Below, piece after piece: positions 22,100 through 51,865 of a DNA stretch of 64,000 bases. A program made the translations under genes and the position numbers. Source of the stretch: a virus; the IMG/VR virus record IMGVR_UViG_3300009499_000148, positions 42,060 through 106,059 of that record. One strand, written 5' to 3'. A model generated the notes under the pieces. That model did not search any database, was not told where the DNA came from, and saw nothing but the letters and a program-made list of their open reading frames with translations. Positions within the stretch are counted from its first letter, which is position 1. Each line of letters starts with the position of its first letter.

Positions 22100-22781
22100 T
22101 CACCAGAGCACTTCAAGCTCTCCTTTCATGACACGAGCTAAAGTTGCTTTCTTTCCTGTGATATGGTCATTCACAACATCATCTCGTTCTCTGTAAGTCC
22201 GACGCTTATCGCCGCGGGCTCCACAACCCACCATTTGTTTTCTATCAGAACTTAACTGTTGTGAAAATGATGTATCATGAATTTCTTTAAGACGTCTTTC
22301 AAGCTCATTCCATGCATTTGCTCTATTTTGTGCTTGTGAACGCTCGTTTTCAGATCTAACTTGTATTCCAGTCGGACGGTGTGTTAATCTACATGCAGTT
22401 GATGTTTTATTTCTGTTTTGGCCGCCCTTACCGCTTCCTCTCATAAAAGCTTCATCAACATCACTTGGATTAAGTTTAAATGTGCTTTTCGCACCGTCTT
22501 TAATAACAGCAACCGTGACAGTTGATGTTTGCACTCTATCTCTCTTTTCAGTCGGCGGAATTCTTTGCCATCTATGGCCGCCTGTTTCATTCTGAAATGA
22601 TGCATATGCACCATCGCCCTTCACTTTAAGAATGATTTGCCCATCATGCTCAAGTCTTTCAATGACGCTAAAGACGCCTCCGAGAACAAAACTTTTCATA
22701 CATCGCTGCCATATCCTGCGCTAATAATTTTGCATCTTGGCCGCCTTCTGCCGCCCTAATTTCAACCGCTATGATATCCAT
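22100..22781 (-). CDS. RF1-type peptide chain release factor lacking domain 1, expressed by +1 frameshift (join 22781..22671, 22669..22100; 226 aa)
   Basis: Frame 0 MDIIAVEIRAAEGGQDAKLLAQDMAAMYEKFCSRRRL* with RBS AGGGAG; +1 frame has GGHRWQRIPPTE (PxT), GSGKGGQNRNK, ERSQ..N, RTY. Confidence 0.9.
22667..22681 (-). promoter_or_regulatory. prfB-type +1 frameshift cassette with UAG: GGAGG CGT CTT TAG C
   Basis: Internal SD, 3-nt spacer, CTT slippery codon, stop, C; same geometry as prfB AGGGGG TAT CTT TGA C. Confidence 0.9.
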
Positions 22782-23056
22782 GTTATCTCCCTGTGTCAAT
22801 GGAACATGTCCCATTGACTCGTCGTATCACTCTAATGCATTGATTATCTGTAGATGATAATCACATAGTCATAAAAATCGATGACTTGGAGTGTGTCAGG
22901 TGAAACAGAAGCTAAAATACGGGTGGGTCTTCATCTGAAGATGAGAGCGCAATATTCTTTGCATTAACTTGCTTATCTTGTTCAAGTTCATCATACGCTT
23001 TCATCATTAATACAATTTAAGTATAAAGTACGGTAAATAACACTACTGAAAAAAAA

Positions 23057-31076: not shown

Positions 31077-31148
31077 CGCGCCCAATGGGATTTGAACCCA
31101 TGACGTAGCAATTTAGAATTGCGTGTTCTACCGCTGAACTATAGGCGC
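31077..31148 (-). tRNA. Amber suppressor tRNA (anticodon CTA)
   Basis: GCGCCTA/TGGGCGC acceptor, GTTC/GAAC D-stem, GCAA-TT CTA AA-TTGC, ATGGG TTCAAAT CCCAT T-arm. Confidence 0.85.
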
Positions 31149-31492
31149 TAAGCAAACGAATTTCCACAACCACACGTCGTGGATGCATATGGATTAATGA
31201 ACTTGAATCCAGTTCCTGATAGACCCATGATGTAATCAATCATCACTCCCTCTAGATGCATCGCAGATACTGGGTCGATATACACGGTGATTCCATCATG
31301 CGTTGATACAATGTCATCATCGTTTTTGTTTGAAAAATCAAGAACATACTCAAACCCAGCACAACCGCCTCCTCTGATTCCCACACGTAATCCATCACCG
31401 ACTACGTTCGGTTCTAGCATGAATTCTTTTATTGCAATGATAGCCTTCTGCGTGATTGTGATTATCTCATTGCTGTTTTCGCTTTCTTGCAC
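31148..31492 (-). CDS. iscA: IscA/HesB Fe-S cluster carrier
   Basis: GGGCAGFEY, CGCGNSF; probable GTG start. Confidence 0.9.
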   Translation of the reverse strand: MQESENSNEIITITQKAIIAIKEFMLEPNVVGDGLRVGIRGGGCAGFEYVLDFSNKNDDDIVSTHDGITVYIDPVSAMHLEGVMIDYIMGLSGTGFKFINPYASTTCGCGNSFA

Positions 31493-31796
31493 GTGCCTCT
31501 TCCTTATACAATCGATTGAGTTGTTCTTGTCTGTCAAGCTGTATCGCAGTGAGACGGCGCTTGCTGATATCGTGTCTCTTTTCGGCTGCAACGACAACGT
31601 TAGACATACGCTTAAGCATTGCGTCTATTGCTCGTATAACGTTTATTAGGACAAGCAGAGCACTCTTCTCAAAGCCCCTTGACTGTGCAACATCCTTATA
31701 CATCGCCTTGAGTGTGCCATCAGCATCAAGCGACGACTGCATGCCATCTAACAGCTTACGAAGTGCGTTAGCACGTTCTTGAAATGATGCACTCAC
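31467..31796 (-). CDS. Hypothetical coiled-coil protein
   Basis: ORF. Confidence 0.55.
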   Translation of the reverse strand: MSASFQERANALRKLLDGMQSSLDADGTLKAMYKDVAQSRGFEKSALLVLINVIRAIDAMLKRMSNVVVAAEKRHDISKRRLTAIQLDRQEQLNRLYKEEARARKRKQQ

Positions 31797-51795: not shown

Positions 51796-51865
51796 AGCCG
51801 TGGGTATGAATTGAACATACGACCTATCGATTAATATCGATTGCTCTACACTGAGCTACCACGGC
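51796..51865 (-). ncRNA. Thr-like tRNA body with collapsed anticodon loop
   Basis: GCCGTGG/CCACGGC; ATCGAT-ATTA-ATCGAT. Confidence 0.65.

Follow-up and report, generated by a model that had tools for sequence, protein, structure and literature searches.

A probable prfB-like +1 frameshift at UAG in an RF1-type release factor gene of a large phage

Introduction

A release factor gene on the minus strand of the window (the whole 64-kb stretch of DNA analysed here) is interrupted by UAG inside domain 2, and the remainder of the factor is encoded in the +1 frame. The question raised by this locus is whether the interruption is a programmed frameshift, and whether the UAG at which it occurs reports on the activity of the factor itself. 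Release factor autoregulation by frameshifting is a textbook case and has been thought to be confined to RF2, the product of bacterial prfB, whereas large phages now appear to carry the same device in genes of RF1 type. Bacterial prfA showed no device of this kind in a survey that covered more than 12,000 bacterial genomes (PMC12421855). Genes for RF1 and RF2 have been described in recoded phages, with no mention of a frameshift (10.1101/2021.08.26.457843), and our literature search found no published frameshift in an RF1-type or phage release factor gene. The source of the window is a 106-kb IMG/VR virus record which was estimated by CheckV to be 29% complete, and the phage is therefore large.

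Anatomy of the release factor gene

The features of the gene, all on the minus strand, were found to be as follows.

22786..22792, minus strand, putative ribosome-binding site AGGGAGA, 4 nt 5′ of the start codon, from direct reading of the sequence
22668..22781, minus strand, frame 0 of the release factor gene, ATG, 37 codons, then TAG, opening domain 2 with EIRAAEGGQDAK...
22677..22681, minus strand, internal SD-like GGAGG, 3 nt 5′ of the shift codon
22676-22674, minus strand, cassette spacer CGT between GGAGG and CTT
22667..22673, minus strand, putative shift site CTT-TAG-C with P-site CUU and A-site UAG (CTT 22673-22671, TAG 22670-22668, C 22667)
22659..22661, minus strand, frame-0 TGA, two codons 3′ of the TAG
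22100..22669, minus strand, portion read in the +1 frame, 189 codons followed by TGA, encoding the remainder of domain 2 together with domains 3 and 4
22550..22558, minus strand, PPT tripeptide (PxT type) inside GGHRWQRIPPTEKRDRVQTST, aligned with the PAT region of E. coli RF1
22418..22426, minus strand, GGQ peptidyl-tRNA hydrolysis motif, its residues invariant in the family alignment

The start codon was ATG at 22781-22779, and the frame-0 peptide of 37 codons (MDIIAVEIRAAEGGQDAKLLAQDMAAMYEKFCSRRRL) was found to end in ...CGG AGG CGT CTT TAG C. The +1 frame was entered at AGC (22669-22667) and closed by TGA (22102-22100). One +1 step at CTT-T joins the two frames into a product of 226 aa, in which GGQ occupies residues 119-121. 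In-frame decoding of the cassette TAG leads to CGT CAT TGA, and the product is then just 40 aa long. The family profile matched frame 0 over positions 1-38 (44 bits) and the +1 frame over positions 37-226 (299 bits). The string GGAGGNNNCTTTRR occurred once in the window against 0.11 occurrences expected; the main test against chance was comparative, namely that 100 distinct relatives were found to have this device at the corresponding codon.

Gene callers reported, on the minus strand at 22699-22100, a 199-aa ORF that opens at an internal ATG of the +1 frame and lacks the first 37 codons; one source named it peptide chain release factor 1. The consequence for annotation is that genes of this kind are reported as truncated 199-aa ORFs.

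Identity of the encoded protein

The joined product was found to contain a single Pfam PCRF match (PF03462, 88.6 bits) that covered profile positions 102-194 of 194 and ran ungapped over the frame junction, followed by the presence of the RF-1 domain (PF00472, 90.5 bits) on its C-terminal side. With the PCRF match limited to these positions, and with no ORF upstream able to supply domain 1, that domain was found to be missing. The members of the family begin at the same point as the window product and are about 225 aa long. Against the NCBIfam models, the 226-aa product scored 208 bits with prfA, 135 with prfB, 72 with prfH and 37 with ArfB, all below the cut-offs; the prfA equivalog cut-offs in particular were not reached (208 against 400 bits for NF001859 and 201 against 423 for TIGR00019). 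Among solved PDB structures, the product aligned with residues 113-340 of E. coli RF1 at 143 bits and with RF2 at 84 bits, RIPPTEKRDRVQTST of the phage factor being aligned with RVPATESQGRIHTSA of E. coli RF1. The recognition region GGHRWQRIPPTE...QTST was found to be strongly conserved and RF1-like.

By these profile and structure alignments, the window gene is classed as an RF1-type class-I release factor made of domains 2-4 only. Domain 1 is dispensable for stop recognition and peptide release, and truncated RF1 was functional in vivo (PMC1586002). By this analogy, the loss of domain 1 should remove the contact with RF3, whereas stop recognition and release should persist. The phage product is predicted from its RF1-type motifs to read UAG. 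The locus also bears on what a phage gains from a factor without the RF3-contact domain.

A PrfH-like rescue factor was also considered as the identity of the product and was rejected on the score of the PrfH model (TIGR03072, 72 bits against a cut-off of 167) and on gene context.

Conservation of the frameshift

The family was found to contain more than 2,000 proteins at E < 1e-10. Loci were gathered from viral and metagenome collections, and the family profile was placed on all three forward frames of each, which gave 198 distinct gene sequences. A +1 shift was needed in 101 of them, and in 100 of these it lay at profile positions 36-38. The remaining relatives comprised 76 with in-frame TGA only, 10 that were open under table 11, four with in-frame TAG (two of them also with TGA) and seven that were without a detectable N-terminal part.

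The shift site itself was found to be conserved. In all 100 distinct relatives shifted at the codon of the window gene, CTT was followed by a stop beginning with T, and C was present directly after the stop in 76 of the 100. An exact GGAGG was found 3 nt before CTT in 58 of the 100, with near variants in more. Codon 37 was CTT in 100 of the 101 frameshifted genes against 2 of about 90 in-frame relatives, and the codons CGG AGG were enriched in the frameshifted genes only and were absent from the about 90 in-frame relatives. Both frames were conserved at the protein level under the family profile, whereas the distance from the cassette to the next frame-0 stop was not conserved and ranged from 1 to 273 codons. 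In a FastTree of 191 genes, the frameshifted genes were mostly placed within one large clade. The device being conserved in the relatives, the +1 frameshift of the release factor gene is very probably programmed.

The exact 199-aa +1 ORF of the window, reading GGVFS across the cassette, was found on 6 contigs from JGI, Logan and ENA. No match was found when the region was compared with GenBank phages by megablast, a pattern scan of viral contigs for the cassette with either stop found nothing, and no near relatives of the window gene were found in the viral or metagenome scans. The scan of genome contigs gave mainly cellular prfA at 34-41% identity.

Other arrangements were also found in the family. 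In L065 (and likewise in L060 and L064), the site of the +1 shift was TGC CTT TAG C, which lies closer to the 3′ end, around codon 51, and lacks an SD; it represents a second shift position in the family. In the 76 in-frame-TGA relatives (for example L001, L030, L037 and L042), one or two TGA codons were present, all within about the first 52 codons; one TGA stood in the alignment at the Trp that is conserved in canonical RF1 (GWK), and the Trp of HRWQR was TGG. At 12 in-frame-TGA loci, a tRNA(CUA) gene was found at most 2 kb downstream of the release factor gene. In the gene of each of L026-L028, codon 44 is TGA and codon 52 is TAG.

Comparison with known release factor genes

The phage cassette and the prfB (RF2) cassette were found to contain the same elements in the same order and with the same spacing, namely an internal SD, a 3-nt spacer, CUU, an A-site stop and C (PMC12421855; PMC5009743). 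In both, frame 0 is short, and the functional bulk of a class-I release factor is encoded downstream of it in the +1 frame. In prfB, CUU is conserved only in the genes that use the shift (PMC5009743), and the same contrast was found within the phage family. The two differ in that the gene which carries the phage cassette is of RF1 type and not RF2, and in that the phage site lies at codon 37-38, inside domain 2 and near residue 145 of E. coli RF1, whereas the prfB site lies at codon 25-26 of domain 1, so that the positions are not homologous. The stop in the window is UAG, whereas that of prfB is UGA and is read only by the encoded factor.

These likenesses suggest that RF1-type phage genes carry a device of the prfB kind, present in its amber form in the window. 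Since it stands at a non-homologous position in about a hundred diverged RF1-type genes, the device would have either arisen a second time or been transferred.

Most of what the first-pass annotation had read from the letters was borne out. The frame 0 that it placed from ATG 22781 to ...CGG AGG CGT CTT TAG C, with PPT and GGQ in the +1 frame, was confirmed by direct reading of the minus strand, and its description of a 226-aa RF1-type factor lacking domain 1 agreed with the PCRF and E. coli RF1 alignments. The prfB-style cassette of SD, 3 nt, CTT, stop and C that it recognized was recovered as CTT-T-stop at the same codon in 100 relatives, its placement of the site inside domain 2 was upheld, and its statement that cellular prfA is not known to carry such a cassette accords with the bacterial survey (PMC12421855).

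With bacterial RF1 (prfA), the phage factor shares the PCRF and RF-1 domains, a PxT-type tripeptide (PPT), the GGHRxQR context and GGQ. It differs from bacterial RF1 in the absence of domain 1, which is the contact for RF3 and the L11 region, as well as in being phage-encoded, in scoring below the NCBIfam cut-off and in needing a frameshift.

PrfH (RFH) is likewise a class-I release factor homologue of about 200 aa with GGQ and without domain 1 (PMC1586002). It differs in being paired with RtcB, whereas the phage gene was found without an adjacent RtcB-type gene and with an RF1-like recognition region and a low TIGR03072 score; no frameshift has been described for PrfH.

The release factors of recoded phages resemble the present case in being class-I factors borne by a large phage with many tRNAs and a suppressor tRNA. 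The record of the window differs in its standard stop usage, and in pairing an RF1-type factor with a UAG suppressor, which is the opposite of the RF2 found in TAG-recoded phages.

Stop codon of the cassette and type of the factor

Among the 101 frameshifted relatives, the cassette stop was TGA in 76, TAG in 19 and TAA in 6. The tripeptide was PPT in most genes whatever the stop, with PPN, PPS, PET and SPT as minor forms, and SPF was seen in none of the frameshifted relatives. About 22 stop changes were counted on the tree of 191 genes, on which the TAG rows were scattered and clustered no more strongly than shuffles (237/500). Close pairs that differ in the stop alone were also found, such as L213 (TGA) and L216 (TAG). 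In comparison, the 8,164 prfB cassettes surveyed contain TGA in 98.6%, TAA in 1.4% and never TAG (PMC12421855), whereas the stop of the phage family varies (75% TGA, 19% TAG and 6% TAA).

In the 90% cluster of the window gene, the four other variants (22 contigs, about 94% identity) read GGVFD across the site, and from this +1-frame protein these nearest relatives appear to carry CTT TGA C. Their apparent CTT-TGA-C and the majority of TGA in the family therefore make the UAG of the window a recent minority state, and on the compared sequences it is considered to be a recent two-base change from UGA. The UAG of the window set against the presumed UGA of its near-identical siblings would constitute a natural experiment on whether such cassettes sense a specific factor.

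The earlier view that the stop had been chosen to match the PxT specificity was not sustained: the stop did not covary with PxT versus SPF, since PPT or a near variant was present throughout under all three stops. Conservation of the cassette, which the first-pass annotation had put forward for checking, held for the device as such, kept in 100 relatives, and not for its TAG form, present in 19 of 101 only. Likewise, its mirror-image feedback loop, in which phage RF1 would be made only when UAG termination is slow, stands as a reasonable reading of the window gene, and was abandoned as a rule for the family, in which the stop is mostly TGA. With TGA in 75% of the cassettes next to an RF1-type tripeptide, the family device is therefore not in general self-feedback by a reader of UAG and UAA. 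It may sense the termination capacity of the host, attenuate expression or serve a factor of broader specificity.

In two relatives, L016 (LR745208.1) and L004, the CTT-TGA cassette was kept whereas the recognition loop was found to be four residues shorter and without PxT (RTSNGRIHSST and HISGDRIHTST, respectively). Judged from these loops, the products may have an altered or lost codon specificity.

Proposed mechanism and alternative explanations

The mechanism is taken to be the same as that of prfB because the gene has the anatomy of the prfB device. Once a ribosome had read frame 0 as far as the cassette, its P site would be occupied by CUU and its A site by UAG, while the internal GGAGG 3 nt upstream would pair with the anti-SD of 16S rRNA, which would favour slippage. 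If decoding of UAG is slow, the peptidyl-tRNA-Leu would slip from CUU to UUU, and the part of the gene with PPT and GGQ would then be translated in the +1 frame. The A-site stop would thus be the sensor, and faster decoding of UAG would give less full-length factor. The candidate decoders of UAG are the RF1 of the host, the phage factor itself if it reads UAG, and a phage tRNA(CUA). The phage factor, if it reads UAG, would limit its own synthesis, and host RF1 and tRNA(CUA) would also lower the output. Frameshifting at CUU-UAG has been observed with E. coli reporters, and the largest shift-site substitution study in that species used this context (PMC5009743).

From these comparisons we infer the slip itself, its dependence on RF1 and the reading of UAG by the product. 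The account as a whole, in which an RF1-type factor of 226 aa without domain 1 is made only through a programmed +1 frameshift that senses UAG, is held to be rather probable. Self-feedback through UAG in the window gene, taken by itself, is given slightly under an even chance.

The alternative that survives best, though it is considered rather unlikely, is that the cassette gates expression according to termination capacity, in general or of the host, or is a fixed attenuator, and provides no self-feedback. The identity of the stop would then drift or be adjusted to the host, and the UAG of the window would be unrelated to the specificity of the product. The free occurrence of the three stops with the same PPT tripeptide, the many unclustered stop changes on the tree and the close pairs that differ in the stop alone all fit such a gate, and the accepted case of self-feedback, prfB, has by comparison a near-invariant TGA (PMC12421855). 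The gate would call for an early weak stop read by a single release factor, and TAA, which is read by both, was indeed the rarest stop. Three relatives nested in the frameshift clade, moreover, have an in-frame stop at codon 38 in place of the shift (CTA TGA C in L024/L284, TAT TAG A in L025/L297 and CTC TGA A in L252). The gene carries on in the same frame after it, and in these relatives the gate seems to be present in a form that works by read-through; according to a 2016 review, no such substitute is known for RF2 (PMC5009743). On the other hand, CTT in 100 of 100 genes together with a placed SD would be a costly precision for mere attenuation. The stop in the window is, furthermore, one that an RF1-type product should read, so that some feedback would follow anyway, and two substitutions were needed to turn TGA into TAG, which occurred within a protein divergence of about 6% from the nearest relatives and hints at selection.

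It is quite improbable that the product is not specific for UAG and UAA, that is, that it reads all three stops or is a rescue-type hydrolase; any cassette stop, or none, would then give self-feedback. An omnipotent factor would permit the free use of three cassette stops, and the low prfA score, the missing domain 1 and the retention of the cassette in L016 and L004 in spite of a loop without PxT are in line with it. The RF1-like recognition region and a prfA score well above those of the RF2, PrfH and ArfB models argue for a specific factor instead, as does the lack of a partner gene such as RtcB nearby.

A one-base assembly error in the run of three T at the site, or a decaying pseudogene, is scarcely conceivable and is regarded as untenable because the identical +1 ORF is present on the 6 contigs from three independent sources, the same CTT-T-stop is conserved at the same codon in 100 distinct relatives and both frames are conserved as protein.

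Genome context, genetic code and suppressor tRNA

The 106-kb record was found to contain one release factor gene and one suppressor tRNA. The neighbours of the release factor gene encode a PIN-PhoH protein, an Hc1-like protein, a nuclease and a helicase, and no translation-related or RtcB-type gene was found among them. Crude gene calls in the window (n=79) ended in TGA in 50 cases (63%), in TAA in 19 and in TAG in 10 (about 13%). In the whole 106-kb record, ORFs bridged by TAG were no commoner than those bridged by TGA or TAA, and a comparison of codes 11, 4 and 15 by six-frame ORF coverage favoured none of them. The fragment uses the standard code, in which TAG is a real and minor stop. TAG recoding of the 106-kb fragment was accordingly ruled out by the stop usage and the counts of bridged ORFs.

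The suppressor tRNA was located as follows.

31077..31148, minus strand, tRNA with anticodon CUA (amber suppressor), predicted by ARAGORN, Rfam tRNA 63.9 bits

It is encoded on the same strand as the release factor gene and 8.3 kb upstream of it. The tRNA(CUA) could compete at the cassette UAG, and it may conceivably belong to the device. It was absent from three other records with a TAG cassette, namely a complete genome of 60 kb, in which no tRNA was found, and two records that contain 31 and 34 tRNAs, and the suppressor is therefore not a regular partner of the cassette. In a complete 436-kb phage with a TGA cassette (L275 / G005), two adjacent tRNA(UCA) genes were found about 10 kb from the release factor gene (L372 5123-5297), and one locus with a TGA cassette was found to contain a tRNA(CUA). 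The idea that the cassette stop is matched to a suppressor tRNA of the phage was rejected, as no consistent link was found in the records compared. The pairing of a TAG cassette with tRNA(CUA) is a single case so far.

A more elaborate possibility, to which only a small likelihood is assigned, is that the UAG cassette acts together with the tRNA(CUA) as a switch. The phage factor, being of RF1 type, would limit itself through the UAG, and the expressed suppressor would also stop synthesis of the factor by way of the TGA two codons on, so that decoding of UAG in the infected cell would tip from termination to read-through at a set time; the recent change from TGA to TAG would then be the adaptation by which the factor came to be wired to the suppressor. 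If so, read-through would extend the about 13% of phage genes that end in TAG.

Several minor observations were made on the tRNA genes. The window was found to contain 24 tRNA genes. The tRNA(CUA) gene is located outside the main tRNA array and begins immediately after the TAG stop of an IscA-like Fe-S biosynthesis gene (31148-31597), and it had no close paralogue among the other 23 tRNAs. The TGA cassette and tRNA(UCA) of the 436-kb phage mirror the TAG cassette and tRNA(CUA) of the window. Inside the tRNA array, ARAGORN reported a tRNA-like gene with a two-base anticodon (tt) on the minus strand at 51796-51865.
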